DNA of 64,000 nt from Escherichia virus TH38, in sequence record MT446410.1. The stretch is one strand, 5' to 3'. Below, in pieces: positions 1 through 61,785 of this stretch. A program made the position numbers and the translations under genes. The notes below the pieces were generated by a model. That model did no database searches. It saw only the letters and a list, made by a program, of their open reading frames with translations, and was not told the origin of the DNA. Every line of letters begins with the position of its first letter. Within the stretch, counting starts at the first letter, position 1.

Positions 1-172
1 CCTAAGCCCCAAAATATTTAAAGTATATATTATATGGTATATTCATATGAATAGGGTGACACTGGCGCCATTATTGTGCAACCAAAAAAGACTACTCTGA
101 AAACGAGGAAAAGATTTTTTCCTGCCTGAATTAGATACGGAGTTAGCGATATGAAAACCGAACAACGTCATG
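1..172. repeat. Direct repeat copy A (171 bp, one indel near the end versus copy B); plasmid divergent-promoter region
   Basis: 1-166 identical to 3174-3339, then tcatg shared after a 1-nt indel; offset 3173 bp. Confidence 0.9.
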
Positions 173-321
173 ATCTTGTTAAAGATATTGAGGTTTTTGG
201 CGTATCCTTGTCTCTGTTGATTTCCAGAGCGAATGAGAAGTCTGTTACAATGCCATCTGGTCTAAGTCGGGAGCAGAGAAGAGCATGGGCAGCGGAGCAG
301 GCGCGCAAAATCCACAATTGA
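151..321 (+). CDS. Small ORF (56 aa) overlapping the start of the next ORF; possible antitoxin-like partner
   Basis: ATG at 151 with GGAG 8 nt upstream; 37-nt overlap with the 285-713 ORF in another frame; not in ORF track (<60 aa). Confidence 0.25.
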   Translation: MKTEQRHDLVKDIEVFGVSLSLLISRANEKSVTMPSGLSREQRRAWAAEQARKIHN

Positions 322-713
322 ATATTGTCTCATTCTCTGAGACCTTCAACCTTTATTACACATCCAGATATTCTGCAAAAACACTCGATAAAATCGATGA
401 TTTCATTGAGCATTTTGAAAAATACAATCTCTTTGGCGATCCTTTAAAAGGATATCCAGCTTGGACTGGCAAAGTATCGCCATCGTGGAAAGTGCCTGAT
501 CATTACGAAAACAAAGAAGCTATTGAGAAGTATGCTAGAGCTAACAAATTATGGCATGCTCATTTAGGCGATCCGGTTTTTAAAGATACGTTTCATGGGA
601 AATACAAGGTTTCTGACTGGGTTATTCATTTCCAGCGGCTGACACCGAACCATATAAAGCTTTTAGAGCTTGGATACCATGACCCAATGAAGCTACCTCA
701 AAACTTTGAATGA
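285..713 (+). CDS. Hypothetical protein, possibly a toxin-like (YafO-type?) plasmid protein; true start may be internal
   Basis: 142-aa ORF with a WHAHLGDP motif; operon-like overlap with the upstream small ORF; family assignment is a weak recollection. Confidence 0.3.
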   Translation: MGSGAGAQNPQLNIVSFSETFNLYYTSRYSAKTLDKIDDFIEHFEKYNLFGDPLKGYPAWTGKVSPSWKVPDHYENKEAIEKYARANKLWHAHLGDPVFKDTFHGKYKVSDWVIHFQRLTPNHIKLLELGYHDPMKLPQNFE

Positions 714-737
714 TCGAGCGGCAGGCTAAATGAAATC

Positions 738-766
738 TTGAGATTCATTCAGTCTCGTCGTAATCT
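738..766 (+). promoter_or_regulatory. RNA II (replication primer) promoter, -35 TTGAGA / 17 bp / -10 TAATCT
   Basis: Same architecture and near-identical sequence to the pMB1/ColE1 RNA II promoter. Confidence 0.6.
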
Positions 767-774
767 CACTATTG

Positions 775-1330
775 TAAAAACGAAAAAACCACCCTGGCAG
801 GTGGTTTTTCGAAGGTTAGTTAATCCTGGCAGATTCTCTAACCGTGGTAACAGTCTTGTGCGAGACATGTCACCAAATACTGTCCTTTCAGTGTAGCCTC
901 AGTTAGGCCGCCACTTCAAGAACTCTCGTTACATCTCTCGCACATCCTGCTTACCAGTGGCCGTTGCCAGTGGCGTTAAGTCGTGTCTTACCGGGTTGGA
1001 CTCAAGACGATAGTTACCGGATAAGGCGCAGCGGTCGGGCTGAACGGGGGGTTCGTGCACACAGCCCAGCTTGGAGCGAACGACCTACACCGAACCGAGA
1101 TACCAACAGCGTGAGCTATGAGAAAGCGCCACGCTTCCCGAAGGGAGAAAGGCGGACAGGTATCCGGTAAGCGGCAGGGTCGGAACAGGAGAGCGCACGA
1201 GGGAGCTTCCAGGGGGAAACGCCTGGTATCTTTATAGTCCTGTCGGGTTTCGCCACCTCTGACTTGAGCGTCGATTTTTGTGATGCTCGTCAGGGGGGCG
1301 GAGCCTATGGAAAAACGCCTCCCGCGCGCC
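775..1330 (+). ncRNA. RNA II pre-primer of ColE1-type origin; RNA-DNA switch expected near 1320-1330
   Basis: Long near-identical stretch to the pMB1/ColE1 ori (e.g. ccagtggcg...taagtcgtgtcttaccgggttggactcaagacgatagttaccggataaggcgcagcggtcgggctgaacggggggttcgtgcacacagcccagcttggagcgaacgacctacaccgaac). Confidence 0.8.
779..886 (-). ncRNA. RNA I antisense copy-number control RNA (approximate ends)
   Basis: Antisense to the RNA II 5' end; hairpin aaaaaaccaccctggcaggtggttttt corresponds to the RNA I terminator; loop sequences differ from pMB1. Confidence 0.6.
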
Positions 1331-1547
1331 CTTCTTCTGGGTCTTTGTCTTTTGCTCACATGTTCTTTCCGGTTTTATCCCCCGATTCTGTGGATAACCG
1401 TATTACCGCCTTTGAGTGAGCTGACACCGCTCGCCGCAGTCGAACGACCGAGCGTAGCGAGTCAGTGAGCGAGGAAGCGGAAGAGCGCCTTATGTGACAT
1501 TTTCTCCTTACGCTCCTCTATGCCGTTCTGCATCCTGTCCGGATGCG

Positions 1548-1742
1548 TTATATCCCGGTAAGATTTTCCGCTTCAAAGCGTGTCTGTATGCTGTTCTGGA
1601 GTTCTTCTGCGAGTTCGTGCAGTTTCTCACACATGGCGGCCTGTTCGTCGGCATTGAGTGCGTCCAGTTTTTCGAGCAGCGTCAGGCTCTGACTTTTTAT
1701 GAATCCCGCCATGTTGAGTACGGCTTGCTGCTGCTTATTCAT
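1548..1742 (-). CDS. rop: Rop/Rom RNA I-RNA II modulator protein
   Basis: 64 aa, MNKQQQAVLNMAGFIKSQSLTLLEKLDALNADEQ... closely matches ColE1 Rop; convergent with RNA II as in pBR322. Confidence 0.9.
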   Translation of the reverse strand: MNKQQQAVLNMAGFIKSQSLTLLEKLDALNADEQAAMCEKLHELAEELQNSIQTRFEAENLTGI

Positions 1743-2001
1743 CTTTTCGTTTTCTCCGTTCTGTCTGTCATCTGCGTTGTGTGATTATATCGCGTACCAC
1801 TTTTCGACTGTTTTGCTGCCGCTATTCTGCCGCTTGGCTTTTTGACGGGCATTTCTGTCAGACAACACTGTCACTGCCAAAAAACTGCCGTGCCTTTGTC
1901 GGTAATTCGAGCTTGCTGACAGGACAGGATGTGCAATTGTTATACCGCGCATACATGCACGCTATTACAATTGCCCTGGTCAGGGCTTTGCCCCGACACC
2001 C

Positions 2002-2349
2002 ATGTCAGATACGGAGCCATGTTTTATGACAAAACGAAGTGGAAGTAATACGCGCAGGCGGGCTATCAGTCGCCCTGTTCGTCTGACGGCAGAAGAAGAC
2101 CAGGAAATCAGAAAAAGGGCTGCTGAATGCGGCAAGACCGTTTCCGGTTTTTTACGGGCGGCAGCTCTCGGTAAGAAAGTTAACTCACTGACTGATGATC
2201 GGGTACTGAAAGAAGTTATGAGACTGGGGGCGTTACAGAAAAAACTCTTTATCGACGGCAAGCGTGTCGGGGACAGGGAGTATGCGGAGGTGCTGATCGC
2301 TATTACGGAGTATCACCGTGCCCTGTTATCCAGGCTTATGGCAGATTAG
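2002..2349 (+). CDS. MobC-like ribbon-helix-helix mobilization accessory protein (no relaxase gene seen)
   Basis: 115 aa; RLTAEEDQEIRKRAAECGKTVSGFLRAAALG resembles the MobC family motif. Confidence 0.45.
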   Translation: MSDTEPCFMTKRSGSNTRRRAISRPVRLTAEEDQEIRKRAAECGKTVSGFLRAAALGKKVNSLTDDRVLKEVMRLGALQKKLFIDGKRVGDREYAEVLIAITEYHRALLSRLMAD

Positions 2350-2569
2350 CTTCCCGGAGAGAAAACTGTCGAAAACTGACGGTATGAACACCGTAAGCTC
2401 CCAAAGTGATCACCATTCGCTTTCATGCATAGCTATGCAGCGAGCTGAAAACGATCCTGACGCATCCTTCCTGTTTTTCCGGGGTAAAACATCTCTTTTT
2501 GCGGTGTCTGCGTCAGAATCGCGTTCAGCGCGTTTCAGTGGTGCGTACAATTAAGGGATTATGGTAAAT
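2350..2569. promoter_or_regulatory. cer-like multimer resolution site; XerC/XerD core at 2540-2569
   Basis: Exact ColE1 cer core GGTGCGTACAA-TTAAGGGA-TTATGGTAAAT at 2540-2569; accessory region assumed upstream. Confidence 0.8.
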
Positions 2570-2737
2570 ATATGAGCTATGCGATAACTTTAACTGTGAA
2601 GCGATGAACCCATTACAGGCAAAGCCAATTACTCCTGACAGTGGTTTAGCCAGAAGCAGGGCTACCAAGACCAATGCAATAAGTAATATATCGTTTTGCT
2701 ATCGTGCATCGCTCGCGCTCAGTTCCATTGTGCTTTT

Positions 2738-3166
2738 TTAAGCTGTCGTTTTTCTTACGGTATATACCGGTTTTTTATGGCGTGGTTTCTTAACTTGTTC
2801 AGCTACTGATGGACCCATTGTATCTAGGTAGTCAACTAGCTTTGTTAGATCATAAATATTGCGACCACCATATCGGCGATCACTCTTCGATGTTGGTTTC
2901 TTGTCCAAGAGATTAGCTTTTTCAAGATCATTGATAGCTCTCTGAACAGTCCGTACAGAAACCCCCATACGTATGGCTAGACTTTCCATTGACGGATGCG
3001 GCCACTCTTGCAAACTCCACCAGTGAACGATCAGGTTAAGTAGTGTGTTAAAGGCCACTGAAGTTAGCTTTTTCTCGTTTTGTATAAAAAACAATACGGT
3101 AGGCACTGCTGTCCAGCCAAGAGACAAACCGCCAGCTTTCCATTTATTCTTAACGGAGTAAGTCAT
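2738..3166 (-). CDS. Winged-helix/HTH DNA-binding protein (plasmid-borne, function unknown)
   Basis: 142 aa; LAIRMGVSVRTVQRAINDLEKANLL HTH; start 8 bp from the repeat. Confidence 0.45.
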   Translation of the reverse strand: MTYSVKNKWKAGGLSLGWTAVPTVLFFIQNEKKLTSVAFNTLLNLIVHWWSLQEWPHPSMESLAIRMGVSVRTVQRAINDLEKANLLDKKPTSKSDRRYGGRNIYDLTKLVDYLDTMGPSVAEQVKKPRHKKPVYTVRKTTA

Positions 3167-3173
3167 TGATTTT

Positions 3174-3344
3174 CCTAAGCCCCAAAATATTTAAAGTATA
3201 TATTATATGGTATATTCATATGAATAGGGTGACACTGGCGCCATTATTGTGCAACCAAAAAAGACTACTCTGAAAACGAGGAAAAGATTTTTTCCTGCCT
3301 GAATTAGATACGGAGTTAGCGATATGAAAACCGAACAACTCATG
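3174..3344. repeat. Direct repeat copy B; plasmid/phage junction at about 3340-3345
   Basis: Identity with 1-172 ends at 3344, after which sequence is phage-like. Confidence 0.9.
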
Positions 3345-5264: not shown

Positions 5265-5485
5265 AATGCTTGATACCTTTGAATGTGTTCAATACGGGTG
5301 GATTGAGCAAATGACGCTTTAACAGCCATTTTCCTAACTTCTTCTTTACGCTGGTTAGTGTGTACAGTATCCCAATGATTGTTATCACGTTGGCGCTGTA
5401 ATATCTTACTGCATTTGCGATGGTTTCCCGTGCTGCGATGTTTCTCACAAATAGGACACTTGCCAAAATTATTACTGAATATCAT
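5261..5485 (-). CDS. Hypothetical small protein with CPIC...H...H putative zinc-binding motif
   Basis: ORF; coupled ATGA overlaps on both sides; preferred over the overlapping 5254-5466 frame. Confidence 0.4.
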   Translation of the reverse strand: MIFSNNFGKCPICEKHRSTGNHRKCSKILQRQRDNNHWDTVHTNQRKEEVRKMAVKASFAQSTRIEHIQRYQAL

Positions 5486-5709
5486 TTTCTCAATCCCAAC
5501 TTTCTTAAGATACGGCCTAACGTTGTTTCTTGCGTGATAATATAGCTGATCGCTTCACGTTCCAACGTTTCAATCTTCATTGGTGACGGATACCATTCAC
5601 CGGTAATAACACATTTACATTCAACGCCATACTTTTTAGATAGGCGGTAATGTTGACCATTGACAAGATTCCGATAAATCGTGGTATGTGTAATTAACAT
5701 GATCATCAC
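5482..5709 (-). CDS. Hypothetical protein (75 aa)
   Basis: ORF. Confidence 0.4.
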   Translation of the reverse strand: MMIMLITHTTIYRNLVNGQHYRLSKKYGVECKCVITGEWYPSPMKIETLEREAISYIITQETTLGRILRKLGLRK

Positions 5710-43328: not shown

Positions 43329-44171
43329 TTACCAAGATTTATCTAACCATGTCCAGTCGAACAGGTCTTCAGGAGTCTGACCAACAAAGAGCAGCCGCGC
43401 ATTCTCAAGCATCTTCTCTTCATCTTCAGTATCGAACTTCTTATAATATTCCATTCGTACTATATGATACATGGTCCACTTATCTGTAACACCAGCTAGT
43501 AATTTAGCTGCTGCCTTCTTCCCTACTCCTTGACGTCGAAGCTGAAGCTTACCACCCCACATGACTTCTTCACGTTCCCCACATCCGGGAATATTATCCG
43601 TACCGTCTCCAATCAACATTTGATAGAAGAAGTTTTGCCATGAGACTAAATCAGATACATAGTGAGGAGGGACTTCTTTCTGCCTTTCTCCACAAGCCCA
43701 GCGATAATGCCATCCGGGAGTTATCAACAAATCCTTGTCTCTGGTACAGATGATAGTATTCTTATCCCTACGTTGCCTTTCAGCTAGTGCATCATCAGCT
43801 TCTCTCCCAAAGACCTCAATGTATTCGTACTTGGCTTTAATGTAATCACCAACGTTTTGCCAATGAAAAGGTCTTTCTCCGGGAGGTCTGTTTGCCTTGT
43901 AGTCTTGTTGCTTAGCAACATCGAAACGGAAGTTACCACCTTCGCTGAAGTAGAATACAACCTTACTGCAACCTGAGCGAGATATGATCGTATCAATCTT
44001 GTACTGAAGTCGTTCAATCATGAAATTGTAATCAACTGGAACACGTCCTGTGTCAAGAAAAGGATGCTCCTGAGTAAGAGCACCCACTTCATATCGAAGA
44101 ACGTCAGCATCCACTAGAGCAACTTCAGGGAGCTTAACTTCTTCCATAAATATCATCCCGAGCTTGATCAA
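43329..44171 (-). CDS. 5'-3' exonuclease / flap endonuclease (FEN)
   Basis: GREADD and GDGTDNIPG motifs. Confidence 0.6.
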   Translation of the reverse strand: MIKLGMIFMEEVKLPEVALVDADVLRYEVGALTQEHPFLDTGRVPVDYNFMIERLQYKIDTIISRSGCSKVVFYFSEGGNFRFDVAKQQDYKANRPPGERPFHWQNVGDYIKAKYEYIEVFGREADDALAERQRRDKNTIICTRDKDLLITPGWHYRWACGERQKEVPPHYVSDLVSWQNFFYQMLIGDGTDNIPGCGEREEVMWGGKLQLRRQGVGKKAAAKLLAGVTDKWTMYHIVRMEYYKKFDTEDEEKMLENARLLFVGQTPEDLFDWTWLDKSW

Positions 44172-50840: not shown

Positions 50841-52685
50841 TTAGTGTGTATGCATCCAGTTAAGTCCAATCTGACAATCAGATGCCAGAGGACATTCCAT
50901 GTTCAGATACTCGCCAGCTTTCTTAACACAAAGCTCAGTGTGCTCTTTGAGTTTCTGTACATCATTACGGTTTACTGAGAATTGACCTTCATCGTGCATA
51001 TCAATTACCTTAGCACAACGAACCTTATCTTTCTCAATCCACTTGTTAAGGAACATCATAGCATATTTCATAACAACAGCACCAGCACATTGCAGGAGTG
51101 TGTTAAGGGCTTTATGAACCATAACCTTACCAGTGGCATCCCGTCTCATTGTAATCTTACGACCATCAACTCCAATCAAGTATCCTTGAGCAGCTTTCTC
51201 TGTCATACGATCAATGAGGATTGCAATACATGGGTTCTCTGCTAAGAAACGTGCTCGCATCACTGAACCTTCGTCAGCCCCACCACCTACAATTGAACCA
51301 AGCTTAGCATCGCCAGCACCGTAGTTGAATGCATAGATAAATGTCTTAGCGTTGTCACGAGTAGGAAGACCAGCAAGTTTCTGGTTGTGGGAGTGGATAT
51401 CACCTTCAAGGAGAATATCACGATACATAATAGCAGAAGCTAAACCACGTTCTGCCAGAGCTTTCTTAGCTGGGTTGTTCTCTTCAATTGCTTCAGCAAG
51501 CATATCCCTACACTCTTTAATGAGGTAGTGAGCGAGCATACGAAGTTCCAGTCCAGAACCATCATACCCTAAGAATACTTCTTTACCAGCGGGTATGTAA
51601 TATTTGTAAGCGCCTACAGGTTTGTCTTTCTTCCCCGGCTTACCTTTCTCGTAAATTACGTTAGTACCTTTTCGTATATAACAACCATCAGGAACAACGT
51701 TAGTAATAACGAAAGGACGAGAGTGATCACTGTCTGAGTTATAGTCAGACTCAAACAAACTGCGACACTCGTGACCAAACAGACCACGGGAGGGAATATT
51801 AACCACGATACGATGTTTGAATCGAAAAGTCGGCGTAGCGCAGCTGTTAGCTTCTGCCGAAAGTTTACCATCTTCGCGTTCCTTTGCTATGAGTCCACTG
51901 ATAAGACCTAGCCTGTGAGCCGCCACAACGCGTCTCTTAAGCAAACTTCCGACACTCCCTAGCTCACCCCCTAACCCTTCTTCAAGAGTCTCCTCGAGGT
52001 TTGTAGGAGCTGTAGGCCACTTGTTTGATGTGGCTAGTGCTTTCTTAATCTCATCAAACGTTACAGGATTACGGCGATTAGGGTTTAATCCCAAACCAAA
52101 TACGTAAGCCTTCATATAATTCTTAGTTTTAAACCTGAAATGCTTTTCTAAGAACTTCTTAATATCAGCGTCAACCATCTCGGCTGTCTGCTTCTGCTTA
52201 GCATTGCCTCGCATCCAAGCAGTATACCATGCTTGGTATGTTCCATACTTTCTCATATCTTTCTTAATTTCGAAAGTATTCCAAGGCTTCTTAGATACGT
52301 TAAACTCTGGAGGAAGAAAGCCCTCATCCATAAGAGCTTCTTTAACTCGTGCATCTTTCGATGGGTCAAAGTCTACGTATTCGACACAGGTGAAAGCTCC
52401 ACCAATATCTTCTCTCTTCAGCCCAACCCTATCACAATAGGATTGAGGCCACTTCTGTAAAGCTCCAGACTTCTTAAATGGCTTCATATAAGTAGAGCCA
52501 TCTAATCTCATCTTAGGTAAGAGAGGAATCAGTTCTTTGTCAATATTAACAATAATCTCTTTAAGGAGGTGAACATACCACCGAGCATTTCTTCGGTTGA
52601 AACTCACTCCGTGCTTCGCTTGCTTAGAGATTATATCAGCGACAGTCATCTCTGTCAAAAATGGGAGAGCGTCCGGGTTGCTCAC
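50841..52685 (-). CDS. DNA polymerase, family A polymerase domain only
   Basis: Motif A GYDGSGLELRMLAH, motif B KTFIYAFNYGAG, motif C MHDEGQ; no exonuclease motifs. Confidence 0.7.
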   Translation of the reverse strand: MSNPDALPFLTEMTVADIISKQAKHGVSFNRRNARWYVHLLKEIIVNIDKELIPLLPKMRLDGSTYMKPFKKSGALQKWPQSYCDRVGLKREDIGGAFTCVEYVDFDPSKDARVKEALMDEGFLPPEFNVSKKPWNTFEIKKDMRKYGTYQAWYTAWMRGNAKQKQTAEMVDADIKKFLEKHFRFKTKNYMKAYVFGLGLNPNRRNPVTFDEIKKALATSNKWPTAPTNLEETLEEGLGGELGSVGSLLKRRVVAAHRLGLISGLIAKEREDGKLSAEANSCATPTFRFKHRIVVNIPSRGLFGHECRSLFESDYNSDSDHSRPFVITNVVPDGCYIRKGTNVIYEKGKPGKKDKPVGAYKYYIPAGKEVFLGYDGSGLELRMLAHYLIKECRDMLAEAIEENNPAKKALAERGLASAIMYRDILLEGDIHSHNQKLAGLPTRDNAKTFIYAFNYGAGDAKLGSIVGGGADEGSVMRARFLAENPCIAILIDRMTEKAAQGYLIGVDGRKITMRRDATGKVMVHKALNTLLQCAGAVVMKYAMMFLNKWIEKDKVRCAKVIDMHDEGQFSVNRNDVQKLKEHTELCVKKAGEYLNMECPLASDCQIGLNWMHTH

Positions 52686-52701
52686 TTTATACTCCTTTAA
52701 A

Positions 52702-53124
52702 TTATTGGTAAAGTAAATCTGTAAATGCTTGGTTATCTTCTATCACATCTAACACGGTAGCTTCATAACTGTAAGCCCTAACCGCCCCGTTAACAACTAT
52801 CCGAGGAGTAGGTGGAGGTGGTGCATGATTAGCCCTAGCTTCACGAGGTTGCTCTCGTACTAAATGAGCCACAACCCTTTGGTTAGCGACTTCTTCTCTT
52901 TCTCGGATAGCTCTCTGGATATAAGCCAACTTCATACCCCAAGCTTCTTCAAACTCTTGAGGGTGCTTATCACTGATAACTACATACTGACGTTCAGAGA
53001 TACCAGATCGAATTTCTGATAAAAGTTCATGGAACAAGTCCAGTTCATGTTCAGTGAGATTCATTTCAATATCATCCCACTTTAGAACTAGGAAACGGTT
53101 TTGGTGTCTAGCTGGTAATGGCAT
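52702..53124 (-). CDS. Hypothetical protein (140 aa)
   Basis: ORF. Confidence 0.4.
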   Translation of the reverse strand: MPLPARHQNRFLVLKWDDIEMNLTEHELDLFHELLSEIRSGISERQYVVISDKHPQEFEEAWGMKLAYIQRAIREREEVANQRVVAHLVREQPREARANHAPPPPTPRIVVNGAVRAYSYEATVLDVIEDNQAFTDLLYQ

Positions 53125-53127
53125 AAC

Positions 53128-53412
53128 TCAACCTCTTGGGAATGGCATCAAAAATTCCACAGCAGATTTAATTTCATTATTGATTCTTGAATCACGATAA
53201 GAGATAAACTTACCTTTGCTATCACGTAACATCACATTAGTTCTGGCTGTTTTGTGAGGGAGTAATGTGACACTAGTTGGAATAGTATCAATCCCTACAG
53301 CGTATTTGTCAATAGTCTTACTTTCAGCCAACAGATAAGACCAAGTACGCGGTTTCTGCTCCGGGCGGTTAGGGTATGTGTCCCGAATTTGAACCATAGC
53401 TAACTTATTCAT
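53128..53412 (-). CDS. Small protein, tandem paralog 2 of 2 (TARTNV.LR...GKFISY...PFP.G family)
   Basis: Shared motifs with the 53414-53668 ORF. Confidence 0.5.
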   Translation of the reverse strand: MNKLAMVQIRDTYPNRPEQKPRTWSYLLAESKTIDKYAVGIDTIPTSVTLLPHKTARTNVMLRDSKGKFISYRDSRINNEIKSAVEFLMPFPRG

Positions 53413-53413
53413 A

Positions 53414-53668
53414 TTAAACTCCTTTAGGGAATGGGATGAGATTTTCTACTGCAACACGGAAAGATTTTTCTACGTTCTTATTCTTATAAGAGATAAATTT
53501 TCCATCAGCTCCGCGAAGGAGTACGTTAGTGCGAGCTGTATTTGGGTTTTGTTGAATCATAGAACGAATGATGTTCTCTGAACCTCTATGCTTATTGGTG
53601 AATTTCCAACTGATAGTTTTACCGGTACGAGTTACATCAATAATATTTACAATTTTTACAATAGACAT
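53414..53668 (-). CDS. Small protein, tandem paralog 1 of 2
   Basis: Shared motifs with the 53128-53412 ORF. Confidence 0.5.
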   Translation of the reverse strand: MSIVKIVNIIDVTRTGKTISWKFTNKHRGSENIIRSMIQQNPNTARTNVLLRGADGKFISYKNKNVEKSFRVAVENLIPFPKGV

Positions 53669-53701
53669 ATTTATTACCTAAGAAATTTAATTTGGTTTAT
53701 A

Positions 53702-53732
53702 TAAAAGAAAAGGCCACCCATTTGGGTAGCCT
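53702..53732 (-). terminator. Rho-independent terminator (minus strand)
   Basis: ggctacccaaatgggtggcc plus T-rich tail on the minus strand. Confidence 0.5.
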
Positions 53733-53736
53733 CATA

Positions 53737-54054
53737 TTACGATGAGCTTAAAGCTCCTTTGCGTGCTCCAGCTGCTTTTCCAGCTCGATCACCACTTTTG
53801 CCGCCGTTTGAACGGTTTGAGCTGACTGATTCAACACGTAAGTTGCTTGACGCATTAGAACCTCCAGACTTGACAGCTCGTTTGTGTCCAACGTCTTTAC
53901 CTCTGACAGCAGCTTTTCCATCGCGCTTTTCAACGATGCGACGTGCACGGTGGCGCTGAGCATCTCCGCTCTTGCTCCCAACGCCTGTCTCACCACGGGC
54001 AATTGCGGTACGTCTTTCTTGTGCATAATCTCTCTTTCCTACATGATCTGCCAT
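53737..54054 (-). CDS. Basic Gly/Lys/Arg-rich protein (KGG-repeat-like); an alternative frame, 53748-54026, is also open
   Basis: AAGGAG RBS 7 nt before the ATG at 54054. Confidence 0.4.
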   Translation of the reverse strand: MADHVGKRDYAQERRTAIARGETGVGSKSGDAQRHRARRIVEKRDGKAAVRGKDVGHKRAVKSGGSNASSNLRVESVSSNRSNGGKSGDRAGKAAGARKGALSSS

Positions 54055-54090
54055 TTAAAACTCCTTAATATATCAGTGTACACTAAGGAG

Positions 54091-54099
54091 TATACATTA
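54091..54099 (-). promoter_or_regulatory. TAATGTATA motif (minus strand) between PhoH stop and the next gene
   Basis: About 40 nt upstream of the 54054 start. Confidence 0.4.
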
Positions 54100-54110
54100 T
54101 AAGTTACTGT

Positions 54111-54848
54111 TTAAGCTTTCTTTTCCATTGCTTTAACAATCGCCTTACAGAAACCAGAACGAACAATATCATCTGATTCACCATCTACAATCTCAGCAAA
54201 CTCATACAGATCATGTTCATCAATAAAGTTAGTAGCCCAAGTAAGACCACTCTCACGACCACGCATATCATGCTGGTTAGTATCACCCATGCAGAACAGC
54301 TGAGAGGTTTCTCCCAATCGAGTCATGATCGAGAAGGCTTCATCTTTAGTGGTGTTCTGGAATTCATCAACAATAACAATAGCATCATTGAAAGAACGAC
54401 CACGGAGATATTCCAGAGGTACGAACTCAATGTTACTATTACCGAGCTGGCATTCATAGAACCCCTTACCATATCGCTGAGTAATAACATCAATTATAGG
54501 CATCAGGTAAGGTTCAAACTTCTCACGCATTCCTCCCGGAAGTAACCCAAGAGAATTGCCCATGCCAACTGAAGGGCGACTCAGAATGATCTTCTGAATC
54601 TTACCGCTCTTCAGTGCATCAATAACTGTGGAAGTGATTACAAAGGTCTTACCACAGCCCGCAGGAGCGTCTGTGAACACAACTTGTTTAGTCTTGATAG
54701 CATTGAGTAGCTCAGACTGAAACTGGTTCTGAGGGACTACAGGCTTTGCTAAAACCACCTCTTCATACTCTCGCTTACCCTTACGAGTAACAAGTGCTTC
54801 TCGACGAAGGTCTTTCCGTGATTCTTTCCGTGATTGACGACGACTCAT
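54111..54848 (-). CDS. phoH: PhoH-like ATPase
   Basis: Walker A DAPAGCGKTF; PhoH-like LPGG...PY...P..D pattern. Confidence 0.7.
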   Translation of the reverse strand: MSRRQSRKESRKDLRREALVTRKGKREYEEVVLAKPVVPQNQFQSELLNAIKTKQVVFTDAPAGCGKTFVITSTVIDALKSGKIQKIILSRPSVGMGNSLGLLPGGMREKFEPYLMPIIDVITQRYGKGFYECQLGNSNIEFVPLEYLRGRSFNDAIVIVDEFQNTTKDEAFSIMTRLGETSQLFCMGDTNQHDMRGRESGLTWATNFIDEHDLYEFAEIVDGESDDIVRSGFCKAIVKAMEKKA

Positions 54849-55030
54849 TTACGCTCTCCAATTTCTTCGTAATGACACTCAGTAGTTAAACAGTCTTTAC
54901 AGATTGCTGTATAAACCCTGACGTTAGTAAATCGTTTGTTCTTCCCTTTGGTTGGAGAGCCTTTGGCAAGCTCTCTGATAATCTTGTTACTTAAATGAAG
55001 GTTTGTTCCTTCACATTTAGAGCACTTCAT
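54845..55030 (-). CDS. Small zinc-ribbon protein
   Basis: CxxC...CxxC. Confidence 0.4.
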   Translation of the reverse strand: MKCSKCEGTNLHLSNKIIRELAKGSPTKGKNKRFTNVRVYTAICKDCLTTECHYEEIGERK

Positions 55031-55346
55031 GGTTCATATCTTTATGAATCCTGTAAACAGCTGTCGCCATACAAGCAACAGCCTCATTGTGTGGGAGATG
55101 CATTCCTGTAGAACCATCCCAATCTTTGAACTCATTGTCAAAGACTCCGGTAGGCTCTGGATACAGAGCTTGCAGCTCCACTAGATCATTAGCAACTTGT
55201 TGCCATTTATCATCAGACCAGATAGGGTCATCCAACCAGTAATACAAATAGGAATGGATGATCAATTGCCTTCTATGCCGATTGATTACTTCAGCGGGAC
55301 TTATTTCACTTCCATTTGAAGTCCTAAATGTATTACTGTCAATCAT
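55017..55346 (-). CDS. Small protein resembling the N-terminal Ia region of NAD-dependent DNA ligase
   Basis: HSYLYYWLDDPIWSDDKWQQVANDLVELQALYPE. Confidence 0.3.
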   Translation of the reverse strand: MIDSNTFRTSNGSEISPAEVINRHRRQLIIHSYLYYWLDDPIWSDDKWQQVANDLVELQALYPEPTGVFDNEFKDWDGSTGMHLPHNEAVACMATAVYRIHKDMNHEVL

Positions 55347-55591
55347 TTCACAACCTTAAATTTGAATGTTGTTGGGTGATAATAATGCAATCTATTGATA
55401 GTGTGTTTTGTTTCAAGATATATCCTGCAAGAGTGGCACATGACATGGGTCAGACCAGTTACAGGATTAGGTTTAAAGTTGGCGACAGTCTTCTCTTTAT
55501 TACAGAAGCTACAGACTTTCTTTTCCATCTTTTCTCCAGTGGTCAACGAATTGCTGAAACACTTTACGATCAAATGTGAAATTACGAGCAA
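55343..55591 (-). CDS. Small zinc-ribbon protein
   Basis: CSFCNKEK...CHSC. Confidence 0.4.
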   Translation of the reverse strand: MLVISHLIVKCFSNSLTTGEKMEKKVCSFCNKEKTVANFKPNPVTGLTHVMCHSCRIYLETKHTINRLHYYHPTTFKFKVVK

Positions 55592-55742
55592 TTCCGCATT
55601 CTCTAAAAGTGGCAGGCATATAATCTACATCACCTTCAGATGTATGACCATAGACTTGAATAAGCTTCTTAATCTTATCTTTCTCTCTTCGAGGAAGCAT
55701 TCTAAATGCCTCCTGAATATCTGTAATATGTTTTATCTTCAT
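55509..55742 (-). CDS. Hypothetical protein (77 aa)
   Basis: ORF. Confidence 0.35.
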   Translation of the reverse strand: MKIKHITDIQEAFRMLPRREKDKIKKLIQVYGHTSEGDVDYMPATFRECGIARNFTFDRKVFQQFVDHWRKDGKESL

Positions 55743-55888
55743 AAGGAATTCCTGCTAATCCTCTGAGTTGTGGGAACAGCAATATTCACATACTCCGCAA
55801 CATGGACAAATTTCTACACTTGGGTCATATGCATCATCAACTGTCATCCCACACTTGGTGCAGAACACATCGTCGTCTTCTTCCAACA

Positions 55889-56137
55889 TTAATTCTCCAA
55901 ACAAGAATCATTCATCAGTAGCTCCAAACTATCAAGTGTGTAGTAATAACCAAAGAATGGGGCTGTTGACTTGGAAACCTTTTTATCAAAAAGAGATTGA
56001 GAAAGATTTATTTCTACTCCAGCATCTTCAAGCTGTTGTTTTGTGGGGTATGTAATGAAAGAGCAAAGCACTTCTGTGTACTCCCCTCTGTCTGTCTCTT
56101 CAACACGACTCAGAATCCAAATACTTTTACTAGCCAT
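55889..56137 (-). CDS. Hypothetical protein (82 aa)
   Basis: ORF. Confidence 0.35.
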   Translation of the reverse strand: MASKSIWILSRVEETDRGEYTEVLCSFITYPTKQQLEDAGVEINLSQSLFDKKVSKSTAPFFGYYYTLDSLELLMNDSCLEN

Positions 56138-56138
56138 T

Positions 56139-56795
56139 TTAACTCTCCAAAGTTTTCTTCAGAGCTGCCCACGAGATTGGGTAGAGTTTAGCCATCTCTT
56201 CATCTAGAGATTTAGCAAACACTCGAACTTCATATTGAGCGTGAGAGGAGAGTCGCTGACGGCACAACTCAAACCAGCCATACAAAGAACCAGTCCACAC
56301 CCACTCAGTGATCATCCCCTGAGGAAGAACAAATCGAGCTTGCTCTGGTGCAATAAATTCAATCAACTTGTCATATGCTGCTAGAGAAGCTTCATATGCA
56401 TCATTAATCAACATTAATGCTTCAGCTCGCTCTCCGTCGAGGAGTTGAATCCCTGAACCTGCATGGAGGTCCGAAGGTCTCGCAAAAATCTCTTTAGGGA
56501 TGAAGACTTCAACTGCTCCATCTTTATACCGCCGGGACATTTCGTTCCACGAGAATCCAACCTGATGCTTGCCCAACTGTCTCGCAATTGCGATAGGTGC
56601 TTTGCATCGGAAACTGACTTGCGGGTGTCGGAATGGAGTACAGTGTTTTTCCCGTGCAAGGAAGTTGATAAGTTTTGTGTCTCTCTCATTTAAGTCGCCT
56701 TCTCGAACAACACCGAAAGATACTCTAGCTGCATTGACTACAGATTTGTCACTACCCATTGCTTCAATCAGTGTTGCTTGTAGTTGTTCGTTCAA
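56139..56795 (-). CDS. ThyX-like flavin-dependent thymidylate synthase (divergent motif)
   Basis: HCTPFRH and GKHQVGFSWNEMSRRY resemble the ThyX signatures, with KH in place of RHR. Confidence 0.5.
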   Translation of the reverse strand: MNEQLQATLIEAMGSDKSVVNAARVSFGVVREGDLNERDTKLINFLAREKHCTPFRHPQVSFRCKAPIAIARQLGKHQVGFSWNEMSRRYKDGAVEVFIPKEIFARPSDLHAGSGIQLLDGERAEALMLINDAYEASLAAYDKLIEFIAPEQARFVLPQGMITEWVWTGSLYGWFELCRQRLSSHAQYEVRVFAKSLDEEMAKLYPISWAALKKTLES

Positions 56796-57234
56796 TTAAA
56801 AGTTCCTTTTTTCGATTCATGTAAACTTGATGAGCTTCTTCGGCAGTTCCATACATACCTAGATGTATATCTACTTTATCAATACAAATAACAGCCCTAT
56901 ATCTGATAGTTCCTGATCTGTATTTGACAACCTTAACACCTTGAAGCCCTGTTTCCTTGTTTGATACTCTAGCCCCGAACTGGTTGTGGCAGTTTGTCGA
57001 GGTGTCCACCAATCTCAAGTTCTGTATTGAGTTGTTCTTCTTATTTCTATCGATATGATCTATCTGAGAAGAAGGCCATTCTCCATAATAAAAGAACCAT
57101 GCCACTTTATGAGCTTTGTGTACTTTCCCTTTAAACCGCAGGGTTATGTACTTACTTCGAGTTCCTCCTAATTTCTTACCTTTTCGAAAGAACTCTCCAG
57201 TCTCAGGGATATACTCTAAATCATCGATTACCAT
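56764..57234 (-). CDS. HNH homing endonuclease with AP2-like DNA-binding domain
   Basis: IDHIDRNKKNNSIQNLRL and GVKVVKYRSGTIRYRAVICI. Confidence 0.6.
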   Translation of the reverse strand: MVIDDLEYIPETGEFFRKGKKLGGTRSKYITLRFKGKVHKAHKVAWFFYYGEWPSSQIDHIDRNKKNNSIQNLRLVDTSTNCHNQFGARVSNKETGLQGVKVVKYRSGTIRYRAVICIDKVDIHLGMYGTAEEAHQVYMNRKKELLIERTTTSNTD

Positions 57235-57499
57235 TCAGAGCTGTATCTAAAAATGCTTTCAGGTTTGCTTCAGTCTGCATACCAGAGAGGCTGTAGTGTG
57301 TACCGCTGTTACGGTCAGGCACAACGAAAGCAGGGATACTTCGTACACCATACTTAACAGCTTGTTCACGACCATCACCTTCAAGGATGTTAATCTCTTC
57401 CACTTCTACATCAAACTCCTTAACAACCTTCTCAAAGGTAGGAGCCATTGCTTTACATGGAGCACACTGATCGCTATAAAACTTAATTACTTTAGACAT
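57221..57499 (-). CDS. Thioredoxin
   Basis: CAPC active site, 92 aa. Confidence 0.7.
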   Translation of the reverse strand: MSKVIKFYSDQCAPCKAMAPTFEKVVKEFDVEVEEINILEGDGREQAVKYGVRSIPAFVVPDRNSGTHYSLSGMQTEANLKAFLDTALNGNR

Positions 57500-57517
57500 G
57501 TAAATCCTTATGCAGTC

Positions 57518-57687
57518 AAGAGGTGAAGCAGGAACGGGATAACAACAGCTACGATAACCATGATAGTTGATGCTGTTTGAATCTCACCTTTCTTATCAGG
57601 AGTTTCTTCAATAAGCTTACCAGAAGCCCAATAAATACCACCACCAATAAAGATAGCCCAAATACCCCATACGATTGCTGATAACAT
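57518..57687 (-). CDS. Small two-TM membrane protein (56 aa) missing from the ORF track
   Basis: ATG with AAGGA RBS; MLSAIVWGIWAIFIGGGIYWASGKLIEETPDKKGEIQTASTIMVIVAVVIPFLLHLLTA. Confidence 0.4.
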
Positions 57688-57747
57688 ATATCTATATCCT
57701 TATAAATAAGTTCTCCCCACCTCGGGTTAGGAGACAGGGCGGAGGTT

Positions 57748-58359
57748 TTAGTAAGACACATCACCACTTGAATGGGACATGTTGCTCTTGACGAAGTAGC
57801 AATACTTGCCAAGACCTTCATTAATTTCTTGAAGCATACTCTGATCGACAGGGTAGGTGGCTAAATCACCATCAAACTCATCCATCTTCTCAATAATACA
57901 CATCAAGGTCATGCACATATCAGAGAGCATACCGTCCATGTCTAGATCAGCATTACCCTCTGAGAACCAAGCATGGGAGAGATAATTAGCTGCTGTAGCA
58001 TCCACTTTAACGCAGTGGTAACGCATACGTTCAGCAATACGATCTCCTACCTGTCGTGCGTAATCTTCCAGCTCATCAAACATACCATGAACACCCTGAA
58101 ATCCTGCACCAGAGACGTTCCAGTGGTAGTTTTTAGCTTTGATATGCAATAGTTCCATGTTAGCTTGTAAGCAGCTCAGGATGTGTTCTAGGCTGTTTCC
58201 ACTAATCATACCTTGCATTGTTTCAAGGCGAGAGATTGATAGGTCGGACCGGTCTAACATGCTATAACTATCACGACCAATCTCAGGTAAATCAAAAACA
58301 TTCTTATGCATTTGGGTTTTCTCCATCAAGTTCAACTGAGTTAGCAACGTTACGTGCAA
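57748..58359 (-). CDS. Dps-like ferritin (DNA-binding ferritin-like protein)
   Basis: NYHWNVSGAGFQGVHGMFDEL matches the Dps ferroxidase-site signature. Confidence 0.55.
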   Translation of the reverse strand: MHVTLLTQLNLMEKTQMHKNVFDLPEIGRDSYSMLDRSDLSISRLETMQGMISGNSLEHILSCLQANMELLHIKAKNYHWNVSGAGFQGVHGMFDELEDYARQVGDRIAERMRYHCVKVDATAANYLSHAWFSEGNADLDMDGMLSDMCMTLMCIIEKMDEFDGDLATYPVDQSMLQEINEGLGKYCYFVKSNMSHSSGDVSY

Positions 58360-58633
58360 TATTATCCATTACCTGCTGGGTAATTACGATGCAGTTCTGT
58401 GGGTCTACTGACTTAGAACGCCCCATTTCAGGGTCATACACCTTAACTCGCTTAGCAGTTGAGCCTGTAACCTGAAGAACCTTCAACAGATATCCCTGAT
58501 TACCAATAGACCAAGCAACAACATCACGATTCTTGATAAAGCGACCAAGCATATCACGATGATAAAACTGTTGCATCACCTTGGATTTTGTAATCTCTTC
58601 AGTGGGCGGGGCCACTTTACTCAAATCTAACAT
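58304..58633 (-). CDS. Hypothetical protein (109 aa)
   Basis: ORF. Confidence 0.4.
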   Translation of the reverse strand: MLDLSKVAPPTEEITKSKVMQQFYHRDMLGRFIKNRDVVAWSIGNQGYLLKVLQVTGSTAKRVKVYDPEMGRSKSVDPQNCIVITQQVMDNIARNVANSVELDGENPNA

Positions 58634-58705
58634 AACTCTCTCCTGTAAAATACAAATTCTTATTGTACTCTATATACATTTGAGAGTTATCATATCTACT
58701 ACCAA

Positions 58706-58915
58706 TCAGTAGTAAATTACTTTAGACATAAAAGAACCAGTGTTAGGGTCTTCATACCAGCGATGTATGTCAGCGCTTTTTACTATTGTGCCCAGAGTCT
58801 TCAACTGTTTCTTAGCAATACGAGCCTCTTTGCGAGTGTCAAACAATTTGATGTTATCTTTTCTCATGTGTTGCTCAAGATCCCAAACAACATGAATAGC
58901 CCACATCTTTTTCAT
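58706..58915 (-). CDS. Small basic protein, tandem paralog 3 of 3 (C-terminal ...KVIYY)
   Basis: Shares the TR..AR..KK ... SKV.YY pattern with its two neighbours. Confidence 0.5.
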   Translation of the reverse strand: MKKMWAIHVVWDLEQHMRKDNIKLFDTRKEARIAKKQLKTLGTIVKSADIHRWYEDPNTGSFMSKVIYY

Positions 58916-59124
58916 TAGTAATGTACCTTTCCGCTGATATAAACACGACCAGAAGAATACTCCTTGGCCTTATGAATACTGATGCTCTTAGTTAAGTCTA
59001 CATTGAACATAGACTTTTTAAAATCTCGAGCCTGTTGACGAGTGGGTAGTGCAGTCATAGTCATACCACCTGATGCCCACTTAATCTTTGCTAACCAAAA
59101 TTGTCTCATAGTGATCGGTCTCAT
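58915..59124 (-). CDS. Small basic protein, tandem paralog 2 of 3 (C-terminal ...KVHY)
   Basis: 1-nt start/stop overlaps with neighbours. Confidence 0.5.
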   Translation of the reverse strand: MRPITMRQFWLAKIKWASGGMTMTALPTRQQARDFKKSMFNVDLTKSISIHKAKEYSSGRVYISGKVHY

Positions 59125-59321
59125 TAATAATAAACCTTACTGTTAACACAAAAAGCACCTTCACTATTCACGATAGCTTTTCCTAGTGTAACCTTATTAA
59201 GTCTAAAAGTAGATTTGTATTGATTTTTGACCCTACGTGCGTGCTCTCGAGTCTTAACAAAATCTACAGCTACTAACTCTCCAGTCGTGTTATCATGTAC
59301 ACGAACAATCCACTTTTTCAT
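59124..59321 (-). CDS. Small basic protein, tandem paralog 1 of 3 (C-terminal ...KVYY)
   Basis: As above. Confidence 0.5.
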   Translation of the reverse strand: MKKWIVRVHDNTTGELVAVDFVKTREHARRVKNQYKSTFRLNKVTLGKAIVNSEGAFCVNSKVYY

Positions 59322-59855
59322 TTACACACCTTTAGATGCAACTACACCTTCAGAGTTATTATAACGACCCTTCACTGCATAGGAGTGCTCCCCTGCATGA
59401 GAGTGCTCAAACATAACCATCTGACCAACACGCATACCAGCACGAACTCGTAAGCTATGATGCTTGGTTACGTTATGGAATTCAAATGTCAGCTTACTGC
59501 TATTAAACCCTGCGTCTGCCCACCCAGCGTGGAGATGGTTCAAACCACAACGAGCCATAGATGAACGCAGAACAAACAGACTTGAGATGTTATCTGGAAG
59601 ATTAAACTCCTCCATAGAGTGAGCCAAGAAGAACTGACCCGGAGTGATAACCAAACCCTCTTCAGGAATCTTTACTTCCTTCCACTGAAGATTCTCTTTC
59701 GCATCAATATCAACGATGCCATCAGCCTGTTCTTCAACAAGGATAGTATCACCAATACGGATATCCACACTAGCAGCGTTAACATACTTATGCTCCGCAT
59801 CCAGATAGCCATTGTCAATTACATCGTGCAGTTCAACACTTCCTAGTAAACTCAT
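59322..59855 (-). CDS. dCTP deaminase / dUTPase-superfamily enzyme
   Basis: ASVDIRIGD, ITPGQFFLA and RSSMARCGL...HAGWADAGF motifs. Confidence 0.55.
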   Translation of the reverse strand: MSLLGSVELHDVIDNGYLDAEHKYVNAASVDIRIGDTILVEEQADGIVDIDAKENLQWKEVKIPEEGLVITPGQFFLAHSMEEFNLPDNISSLFVLRSSMARCGLNHLHAGWADAGFNSSKLTFEFHNVTKHHSLRVRAGMRVGQMVMFEHSHAGEHSYAVKGRYNNSEGVVASKGV

Positions 59856-59864
59856 TCTTATTCC

Positions 59865-61226
59865 TTAGTTGTTTGTTTCCATGTCAAAAGAGATTCCACG
59901 ACCCGCTTCATCGGCAAACCGAACTGTGCGGGTTTGAGGTTCTAATACTTCAGGGTTGTTAGCAACAAAGCGGTCAGCGAGATTTCGACTGATGGTCTCA
60001 GCAAGTTCCTCATGAGAAGGAACATCAAGACTACCTGCCACATCTTGGGCCACACCTTCATCAGTCCACACAGCCCTAACAGGTGCGTTGATATCACCAA
60101 CAGCAAAACCCTGACCAGAGAACTGACGTGCGCTAACAGTTAAACCATTTGGACGACCACGAGAAGGACTAGCCATCCATCTCTCCATAGAATCACTTGT
60201 AATACCAAGAGCTTCTTCAAAAGATGTTCTACGAGTAGGGCTTACTCTTCGTGACTCTTGTGCTCGGCGCATTGCAGGGGCTACAAACACCCCTTCAATT
60301 GCATTGTGCCGATTAGGTTCATCTTCTCGACCAAGGAGATCTCCTCCTGTATTAGTTGTTAAGTTTGTCAACCCTTCAGACCAATATGCACGAATCTGGC
60401 TAGAGCCATGAATGCTTGACATTAACTGAATCTCTTCATAAGGGATTCCAAAGAATCGACTCATGTCTCGGTTAACACAATATTGAGCACTTGTTGTATC
60501 CTCAATAAGAGAAACCTGACCTAATCCATTAACCAGATGACTAACCGGCTGGGGTGTGGGAAGATATCGAGTTTGGGCCATGTATTGATGTGCAACTGCT
60601 GGAGAGGAAAATCTCAATACTTGCGAGTTAGGCCACTTCTTGTGAACGTATCTGATTTCACGACTAGAAACAACCACTGGACAGGGGGCGGTCATAGCCA
60701 AATACCCATGAGAAGTCATGAATAAATTGTCAAGAGTCATCGCACCACGACACATCATAGGAAAATTATCCAATACCTCTTCAATAGAAGTAGGATAATT
60801 AAACATGAATTGGATACGAACCCCATTCCACTGAAACTCAATAATATCAGTGAATGTTAATTGAGAACCCCCAGCATAGGATTCGTTCGTAGCTTCAGCA
60901 AGAAGGGATGCATACTCGATATCTTGTGACTCTAGCCATTCCTTCACATTACTTTCAATCTCTCTTCCAAGAGCTTGCCAACGGTCAGTTGGGATGGATA
61001 TGTTTTGAGTTCTTGGTGTTTGTCCTCTGACAATAAAGATATCAATGTCATGTGGAGCTGTGTTATTAAGCACAGCATCTCGAACAGCCCCACCAGTAAT
61101 GATGGGACAGATACCGTCTGGAATTAAGTTGTTATTAATCAATTGCTCAATGAAGTGACGACCAACAGTGATATCAGGTTGTTGAGAAACCTTATCTTCA
61201 ATTTGGTTAATCGGGATAACAATCAT
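59865..61226 (-). CDS. Pol-beta superfamily nucleotidyltransferase (tRNA CCA-adding / poly(A) polymerase head-like) with about 330-aa extension
   Basis: ITGGAVRDAVLNNTAPHDIDIF; start taken at the ATG one nt after the exonuclease stop. Confidence 0.5.
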   Translation of the reverse strand: MIVIPINQIEDKVSQQPDITVGRHFIEQLINNNLIPDGICPIITGGAVRDAVLNNTAPHDIDIFIVRGQTPRTQNISIPTDRWQALGREIESNVKEWLESQDIEYASLLAEATNESYAGGSQLTFTDIIEFQWNGVRIQFMFNYPTSIEEVLDNFPMMCRGAMTLDNLFMTSHGYLAMTAPCPVVVSSREIRYVHKKWPNSQVLRFSSPAVAHQYMAQTRYLPTPQPVSHLVNGLGQVSLIEDTTSAQYCVNRDMSRFFGIPYEEIQLMSSIHGSSQIRAYWSEGLTNLTTNTGGDLLGREDEPNRHNAIEGVFVAPAMRRAQESRRVSPTRRTSFEEALGITSDSMERWMASPSRGRPNGLTVSARQFSGQGFAVGDINAPVRAVWTDEGVAQDVAGSLDVPSHEELAETISRNLADRFVANNPEVLEPQTRTVRFADEAGRGISFDMETNN

Positions 61227-61227
61227 T

Positions 61228-61785
61228 TTACATTTTCCAATATAATGAAGGTGGGTCGTAAGGGTCGAATCCTGTGAGTTCACACAAGTATTTATAAACC
61301 TTAACGGTTAAGTTAACGTCCTGTTCACAATAAGTAAACATATCTTCAGTGAAAGCATCCCATGCTTCCTCTTGCTCACCGTAATCTCCTTTAAGTTCCT
61401 CTAAGAACTCACCCCACTGCTTCAAGCCATGACCTCTTGGGCCATGTCTAGGGTCGCCTTTCGGATACTCAGGACTGTCACCAATACGGTCAGGTTTAAG
61501 ATATCGACTAAGACATAGAGTGTCAAAGACGTTAAAATGATATTTAATCAAAGAAGGATACATCTTCTTCAGAGCAGGTAAGTCGAAGTCAATAATGTTA
61601 TGACCAACGAGCACATCAGCTTCTGTAAGTTTACGAATCCCGTCTTCAATTTGGTGAGGCCGATAGCCCCACCTTTCACCAGTTTCAACATTGAAGATGT
61701 AAATACACCATACTTTAGTTATGTCATCGTACAGTGCATTACTCTCGATATCGAATGCAAACACTTTCTTCTTTTTCTTTACCAC
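61228..61785 (-). CDS. Stand-alone DEDDy 3'-5' exonuclease domain protein
   Basis: FDIES (Exo I), HNIIDFD (Exo II), YCEQD (Exo III). Confidence 0.6.

Follow-up and report, generated by a model that had tools for sequence, protein, structure and literature searches.

Escherichia virus TH38 carries its replicase genes in two pieces. In the stretch analysed here, 64,000 nucleotides (nt) of sequence record MT446410.1 (hereafter the window), a 614-amino-acid (aa) family A DNA polymerase of the type of bacteriophage T7 gene product 5 (gp5) has no exonuclease domain, and the matching 3'-5' exonuclease is a separate 185-aa protein encoded on the same strand. These genes are a T7-type polymerase and its cognate proofreading exonuclease in a split, old and conserved arrangement. 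We consider it likely that the two proteins form a two-subunit T7-type replicase derived from an anciently split gene 5-type polymerase, in which the subunits would assemble as a heterodimer and the exonuclease would proofread for its partner. A first-pass annotation of this DNA, made from the sequence without database searches, had noticed both genes, their catalytic motifs and a separation of about 9 kb. The distance from exonuclease stop to polymerase start is 8,542 nt, so that this estimate was fair, and both motif assignments are borne out by the evidence below.

The polymerase is equivalent to T7 gp5 residues ~211-704, with clade-specific insertions. Its sole Pfam match is DNA_pol_A (PF00476), which covers residues 361-611 (E 2.5e-23; 83 bits, cut-off 34.3), and it matches PHROG 17 (DNA polymerase) with an E-value of 3.4e-79 over profile positions 836-1233. 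In a MAFFT alignment including T7 gp5, nine residues are identical to those of the T7 enzyme: D375 of motif A (T7 D475), R443, K447 and Y451 of motif B (R-x3-K-x3-Y; T7 R518, K522 and Y526), Y455 (T7 Y530), H564-D565-E566 of motif C (T7 H653-D654-E655) and the C-terminal H614 (T7 H704). The motif residues are unchanged across 45 homologues. T7 gp5 is also the best relative by sequence in the PDB (E 1.3e-32, polymerase residues 421-614 aligned to T7 496-704), with weaker stretches from residue 63 aligning to T7 295 onward. The AlphaFold2 (AF2) model is confident (predicted local distance difference test, pLDDT, 94.1 for the exonuclease discussed below and 90.2 for the polymerase; predicted template modelling score, pTM, 0.89 and 0.77, respectively), and T7 gp5 chains fill the first 27 places in the Foldseek ranking of PDB matches to the polymerase model (E 7e-26 to 5e-19), with Bst and M. 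smegmatis Pol I next. The predicted thumb-palm-fingers fold is thus similar to that of solved family A enzymes. By its motifs A, B and C the protein belongs to the family A (T7 gp5-type) polymerase domains, and DNA synthesis is its predicted activity. A vestigial exonuclease domain was considered as well and rejected: residues 1-360 have no exonuclease or RNase H-like Pfam match at E <= 10 and no BLASTP similarity to the 185-aa protein, and PHROG 17 coverage of the polymerase begins directly past the exonuclease segment of the profile.

The 185-aa protein corresponds to T7 gp5 residues 1 to ~190, plus a 14-aa C-terminal tail. It matches Pfam DNA_pol_A_exo1 (PF01612; E 1.8e-9, 38.1 bits against a cut-off of 23.6), PHROG 38876 (4.8e-74) and PHROG 403 (4.6e-39), the latter two each named 'DNA polymerase exonuclease subunit', and it covers positions 667-826 of the same PHROG 17 profile that the polymerase matches further on. 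The six catalytic residues checked are identical to those of T7, namely D12/E14 of Exo I (DxE; T7 D5/E7), N63/D68 of Exo II (Nx4D; T7 N60/D65) and Y152/D156 of Exo III (Yx3D; T7 Y170/D174), and they are unchanged in 41 stand-alone homologues of 35-79% identity. The best relative by sequence in the PDB is again T7 gp5 (exonuclease residues 10-164 to T7 3-182, E 3e-11). A Foldseek search with the exonuclease model puts T7 gp5 chains in the first 27 PDB places (E 5e-11 to 4e-9, 26-30% identity), and the free exonucleases TREX1/2 and diDNase trail at ~1e-5 with 10-15% identity. The protein therefore resembles the proofreading domains of polymerases more closely than it does free-standing exonucleases. 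The first-pass annotation had named clustering with an unrelated stand-alone exonuclease family as the result that would overturn its reading, and had proposed structure prediction as a check; T7 gp5 came out best by sequence as well as by fold, for both proteins.

Joined end to end, exonuclease and polymerase tile T7 gp5 with nothing lost or duplicated. In the alignment the break maps to the linker between the exonuclease and polymerase domains, at T7 residues ~190-210, and in the alignment with 51 fused relatives it falls directly past the last exonuclease helix and directly before the first polymerase helix. The exonuclease ends 14 residues past the last conserved helix, and the polymerase starts 5 residues before the first. 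Family matches, motifs and positions are all far from chance level.

The surrounding gene order points to how the two halves came to be separated. Read on the minus strand, from primase/helicase to 5'-3' exonuclease, the T7 gp4-type primase/helicase gene comes first, with a 7-nt overlap between its end and the beginning of the exonuclease gene (...CCGTGGTAA). The exonuclease is an open reading frame (ORF) of its own, which starts within the end of the helicase gene and reaches a TAA stop after residue 185. A cassette follows that consists, in order, of genes for a nucleotidyltransferase, a dCTP deaminase, small ORFs, a Dps-like protein, thioredoxin, an HNH endonuclease, the thymidylate synthase ThyX, a small PHROG-annotated DNA ligase and PhoH. 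The polymerase gene then begins at a GTG codon, with its own Shine-Dalgarno sequence (AAGGAG) 7 nt upstream, and beyond it lie a sigma factor and a dNMP kinase gene and finally the 5'-3' exonuclease gene. Hence helicase, exonuclease, cassette, exonuclease-less polymerase and 5'-3' exonuclease are found in this order on one strand, collinear with T7 genes 4, 5 and 6. Such collinearity argues against rearrangement, and the split looks instead as if a gene cassette had been inserted into the linker. The first-pass annotation had left two possibilities, proofreading in trans or a gene split by rearrangement: proofreading by a separate polypeptide is the sensible reading in the light of the PHROG 17 and T7 gp5 matches, and the second possibility fails on the collinear order. 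The T7 replisome resembles that of TH38 in further respects, with a gp4-type primase/helicase whose acidic tail ends in an aromatic residue (in the TH38 primase/helicase the acidic C-terminal tail ends in W) and a gp6-type 5'-3' exonuclease. T7 gene 5 polymerase is the best solved relative of both TH38 halves, and the catalytic residues in the two active sites, Y526 among them, are the same, as is the C-terminal His.

The same split is widespread among relatives of TH38, which is itself a Kuravirus. The 10.9-kb region from exonuclease to polymerase has 93-98% nt identity to more than 60 Kuravirus genomes, which are phiEco32/SU10-like E. coli podophages; to EC.W2-6, YW01, Bas90 and SU10 the nt identity is 96-98%, and 62 of the 108 phage records that match the region span at least 80% of it. 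The orthologues are SU10_051 and SU10_075 in SU10, each labelled 'DNA polymerase', and gp49 and gp70 in YF01, while in Bas90 they carry the labels 'DNA polymerase' and 'DNA polymerase exonuclease subunit'. Across the Kuravirus/phiEco32-like phages (phiEco32, SU10, YF01, 7-11, Privateer, Vp_R1, BUCT695) the split family A polymerase is the same as in TH38. In the comparison with relatives that the first-pass annotation had called for, the polymerase is not contiguous in SU10, Bas90, UFV-P2 and LAh_8, and it is fused in T7-like relatives. In these four phages the gene order is also that of TH38, with a gap of 2.1 kb in UFV-P2 and of 9.6 kb in LAh_8 (Lahexavirus), where the cassette holds NrdD/G, PhoH and thymidylate synthase. 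The LUZ24-like Pseudomonas phages (LUZ24, PaP3, tf, UFV-P2), in which the genes are known as 'DNA polymerase part I / part II', share this order too. In UFV-P2, a Vicosavirus, the 3'-5' exonuclease has 171 aa and its gene overlaps the helicase gene, the exonuclease-less polymerase of 546 aa is ~70 aa shorter than that of TH38, and the 2.1-kb cassette has small ORFs in place of the nucleotide-metabolism genes; the UFV-P2 region examined shows no thioredoxin. LUZ24-like polymerases are 38-42% identical to the TH38 polymerase over the full length, and the one that was aligned shares two clade-specific insertions with it.

Searches of protein collections gave a similar picture. A word-indexed search with the exonuclease yielded 64 homologues, nearly all of 160-250 aa and a few of them shorter fragments; that only stand-alone proteins appeared reflects a sensitivity limit of this search, since an exhaustive profile search recovered fused relatives. 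The latter gave 5,681 matches among 1.84 billion representatives, and the best 150 of these comprise 84 proteins longer than 540 aa, 33 of at most 260 aa (stand-alone) and 33 of intermediate length; in the long proteins inspected among them the exonuclease domain is N-terminal. A tblastn search with the exonuclease matched 1,901 phage records, mostly T7-like fused polymerases among the rows listed. The best 120 polymerase homologues, in turn, nearly all lack an exonuclease domain (~490-618 aa) and include the LUZ24-like 'DNA polymerase part II', and fused forms appear at ~43% identity. Equal longest contigs for homologues of the two proteins (for example 81,643, 88,363, 86,289 and 28,562 bp) suggest that exonuclease and polymerase homologues share contigs. 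In separate neighbour-joining trees of the exonuclease and polymerase columns, calculated without bootstrap and with fused sequences all from one family, the 20 stand-alone exonucleases and the 26 exonuclease-less polymerases are each set apart from the 51 fused enzymes by a clean bipartition. Both trees fit a single old fission that would have been followed by co-inheritance of the halves.

Taken in sequence, these observations are consistent with the following course of events. A T7 gene 5-type gene would have been split long ago in the linker between its proofreading and polymerase domains. The exonuclease half would have remained directly behind the primase/helicase gene, with stop and start overlapping, and the polymerase half would have come to lie 8.5 kb downstream, past a cassette of nucleotide-metabolism and small genes, with a ribosome-binding site of its own. 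The 185-aa exonuclease and the 614-aa polymerase would assemble non-covalently as a heterodimer that rebuilds the gp5 architecture; a mismatched primer end could leave the polymerase site for that of the exonuclease, and the exonuclease would proofread like the N-terminal domain of gp5. Whereas T7 gp5 is one 704-aa chain (with E. coli thioredoxin), TH38 has two. A working analogy is E. coli Pol III, in which the DEDD exonuclease epsilon (DnaQ), the product of a separate gene, proofreads as a subunit bound to alpha (DnaE); epsilon binds the PHP domain of alpha through a C-terminal peptide. The family C polymerase is unrelated, and homology of the alpha-epsilon pair to TH38 is limited to the DEDD fold.

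Several points weigh against a two-subunit replicase. The case for an exonuclease-polymerase complex is an indirect one, built on homology, intact active sites, conservation and co-inheritance, and no biochemical work on the split enzyme of this clade was found in the literature searched. The exonuclease gene is always linked to the primase/helicase gene and not to the polymerase gene. Finally, by homology to SU10 and phiEco32 the exonuclease is early and the polymerase middle, so that stoichiometry and timing of the two products may differ. In SU10, where the classes were assigned by homology to phiEco32, CDS69-125 are early, including the exonuclease (CDS75) and the primase/helicase (CDS76), and CDS25-68, among them thioredoxin (CDS65) and the polymerase (CDS51), are middle; early and middle genes are divided by a promoter upstream of CDS68, with no terminator between them (PMC4281155). 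A candidate promoter of TH38 between the two halves coincides with this position. Together with the SU10 classes it places exonuclease and polymerase in different temporal classes, with read-through to be expected.

These points lend some substance to an alternative that we nevertheless regard as improbable, namely that the 185-aa exonuclease acts independently, either distributively or with the primase/helicase, in 3'-end trimming, recombination or host DNA breakdown, and that the polymerase is effectively non-proofreading. Such a role would suit the overlap of the exonuclease gene with the primase/helicase gene, a position beside the helicase that is kept in all four architectures examined, as well as the placement of the exonuclease in the early unit and of the polymerase among the middle genes; the 14-aa C-terminal tail, which is clade-specific and absent from fused enzymes, could be read in the same way. 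The closest relatives by sequence and fold, however, are polymerase proofreading domains and not free exonucleases, and every architecture examined pairs an exonuclease-less polymerase with a stand-alone exonuclease, the trees of the two partitioning alike. Moreover, no terminator is detectable in the early unit, and transcription continues from it into the middle genes (PMC4281155), which implies that both products are present together during replication. A heterodimeric T7-type replicase thus remains the reading that we prefer.

How the two subunits might hold together can be approached through the insertions, to which the polymerase owes its extra length. Compared with T7 gp5 and a compact fused relative, the alignment places three of them within the polymerase domain: ~90 aa in the thumb (residues ~132-225), ~55 aa before motif A (~312-368) and ~28 aa after motif A (~391-419). 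The thumb insertion is helical and the pre-motif A insertion is rich in beta-strands; both are also present in the one LUZ24-type exonuclease-less polymerase that was aligned and absent from the T7 and compact fused polymerases. The post-motif A insertion is seen in the TH38 polymerase alone among the aligned polymerases. The thioredoxin-binding thumb loop of T7 (~258-283) has no counterpart in the TH38 polymerase in this alignment, which shows a gap there in the LUZ24-type and compact fused polymerases too. TH38 therefore lacks a T7-type thioredoxin-binding loop; the phage does have a thioredoxin gene, and its product could bind elsewhere on the polymerase. It has been proposed that the phage thioredoxin partners the polymerase, as in T7 (PMC7881722). 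We speculate, with little confidence, that the thumb and pre-motif A insertions together with the conserved FDPxxPP tail of the exonuclease form a docking surface for the detached exonuclease, and perhaps for thioredoxin. With the exonuclease expressed early and the polymerase in the middle phase, such docking would allow the exonuclease-to-polymerase ratio, and hence fidelity, to change during infection.

Two further explanations were weighed and carry next to no probability. One is that a single gp5-like chain is restored after expression, through split-intein trans-splicing of the two halves or through RNA splicing. The UFV-P2 genes have been called 'exons' ('two exons') in PMC3890496, and relatives carry group I introns in their polymerase gene, though at a different site. 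Against this, the 14 residues past the exonuclease helix and the 5 before the polymerase helix leave no room for intein halves of ~100 and 35 aa, both genes have their own start, stop and Shine-Dalgarno sequence, the 8.5 kb from one to the other is taken up by ~22 same-strand ORFs of 50 aa or more, and Rfam finds no intron in the window. A split intein in particular was rejected, as Pfam finds no intein domain and no intein halves stand at the break.

The other, that the split is a recent disruption of the TH38 genome (mediated by the HNH endonuclease, by another rearrangement or by misassembly) with one half decaying, could draw on the HNH gene in the interval and on the assembly chimera, unrelated to the split, with which the window begins, but founders on an identical arrangement in at least 62 phage records and three other phage groups, on active-site residues that are unchanged in homologues down to 35% identity, and on SU10 and Bas90, which share the split without an HNH gene. 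The first-pass annotation had correctly placed an HNH gene between the halves and hinted at its involvement. This gene lies ~4 kb from either half, between the thioredoxin (trx) and thyX genes; SU10 and Bas90 do not have it, and L005 and other kuraviruses do, often under the label 'integrase'. The absence is taken from annotation tables; in a MAFFT DNA alignment, whose gaps are poorly placed, SU10 is ~440 nt shorter in the HNH region. As SU10 and Bas90 are split identically without it, the HNH gene was rejected as the cause of the split; it is a variable mobile insertion unrelated to it. It overlaps the thyX 5' end by 32 nt and the trx 3' end by 14 nt, and the pattern is typical of a homing endonuclease. 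Compared with SU10, TH38 has this gene and is without SU10_055 and SU10_072, differences that do not go beyond the level of strains.

Table 1. Features of the split-replicase region of Escherichia virus TH38 (positions in the window) and the basis of each assignment
Feature	Position	Strand	Basis
T7 gp4-type primase/helicase, 596 aa	61779..63569	-	Pfam DnaB_C 9.9e-11, Toprim_2; same label in SU10, Bas90
Stand-alone DEDDy 3'-5' proofreading exonuclease subunit, 185 aa	61228..61785	-	Pfam, PHROG, fold, catalytic residues
Nucleotidyltransferase with CCA-adding-type head, 453 aa, first cassette gene	59865..61226	-	PHROG 12715 1.2e-260, weak Pfam PolyA_pol
dCTP deaminase	59322..59855	-	ORF and SU10, Bas90 orthologue annotation
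Candidate early/middle promoter between the halves	58673..58716	-	Phage-sigma motif AATGTATA and sigma-70-like -35/-10 pair
Phage thioredoxin, 92 aa, CAPC motif	57221..57499	-	PHROG 22 8.5e-13; SU10 CDS65
Free-standing HNH endonuclease	56764..57234	-	Pfam HNH_3 1.6e-13
ThyX thymidylate synthase	56139..56795	-	ORF; orthologue annotation; Pfam Thy1 on L005 orthologue
PhoH-like ATPase	54111..54848	-	ORF and orthologue annotation
Exonuclease-less T7 gp5-type family A DNA polymerase, 614 aa	50841..52685	-	Pfam, PHROG, fold, residue mapping
5'-3' exonuclease, T7 gp6 counterpart	43329..44171	-	PHROG 107 'exonuclease' 1.8e-65

Some observations on individual elements of the region complete this account (Table 1). 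The true start of the nucleotidyltransferase gene is the ATG at 61226, one base past the exonuclease stop, and the GTG at 61283, which gives a 472-aa ORF, overstates the gene; the PHROG 12715 match covers residues 20-472 of that ORF. The protein has a head of the CCA-adding/poly(A) polymerase type (GGAVRD) and a long C-terminal region without a Pfam match. The phiEco32-type phage-sigma core AATGTATA occurs in 8 copies in the window (at 3452, 20151, 37695, 44598, 47591, 47664, 54091 and 58673) against 2.8 expected, a number reached in none of 100 shuffles, and the minus-strand copies at 58673, 54091 and 47591 fit three SU10 middle-promoter positions. Within the 'middle' unit, ~1 kb upstream of the polymerase gene, a strong hairpin resembling a terminator (10-bp stem, 6 of its pairs G-C, and a T run behind it) at 53710-53733 on the minus strand is followed by a sigma-70-like site, TTGACA-17-GATACT, at 53284-53312; because of this succession the polymerase may have its own transcription unit.

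The polymerase gene itself contains, in sense orientation within codons ~10-19, a TTGACA-17 nt-TATAAT element with an extended -10 TG at 52630-52658 on the minus strand (12/12 of the sigma-70 consensus). It is kept in SU10 and Bas90 but missing from L005 and L006, relatives of 87% identity; by a rough estimate, ~0.02 such perfect sites would be expected per window by chance. If it has a function, it might be that of an internal promoter or one in origin-related transcription. The polymerase gene of Aeromonas phage BUCT695 and of some kuraviruses related to TH38 has been called as two pieces, of ~454 and ~139 aa. In L005 a group I intron interrupts the gene (RF00028, 102 bits, E 2.6e-27) at L005 positions 5354-5617, equivalent to about position 51320 of the window, and an intron has also been reported in the polymerase gene of LUZ24 (PMC3517423). 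The TH38 polymerase gene, unlike that of some relatives, is uninterrupted.

At its left end the window is not phage DNA. With 100% identity, positions 1-3173 match the whole of a 3,173-bp ColE1-type mobilizable E. coli plasmid (unnamed3 of ATCC 25922, 'FDA strain Seattle 1946'; the same plasmid sequence is found in Nissle 1917), with RNAI (Rfam, 80 bits, 780-881 on the minus strand), Rop and MobA. Positions 3174-3339 exactly repeat 1-166, a circular overlap, and Kuravirus homology begins at ~3334-3340. This looks like host-plasmid contamination that an assembler joined to the phage contig and not like a biological hybrid.

A split family A polymerase in these phages is already known, from GenBank and PHROG annotation and from genome papers that reach back to phiEco32 and LUZ24. 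Exonuclease and polymerase have been described as separate subunits for all kuraviruses and relatives, with the 5'-3' exonuclease also named as a separate subunit (PMC9965538); in 2012 the two activities were placed on separate genes in all LUZ24-group phages, and a comparable organisation was noted as reported for phiEco32 in 2008 (PMC3517423). The UFV-P2 genes are listed as 'DNA polymerase part I/II' (PMC3890496). As it is already recorded in annotation and in several genome papers, the split matters little as a discovery. A natural pair of exonuclease-less polymerase and add-back exonuclease could hold some practical interest as an enzyme of tunable fidelity.

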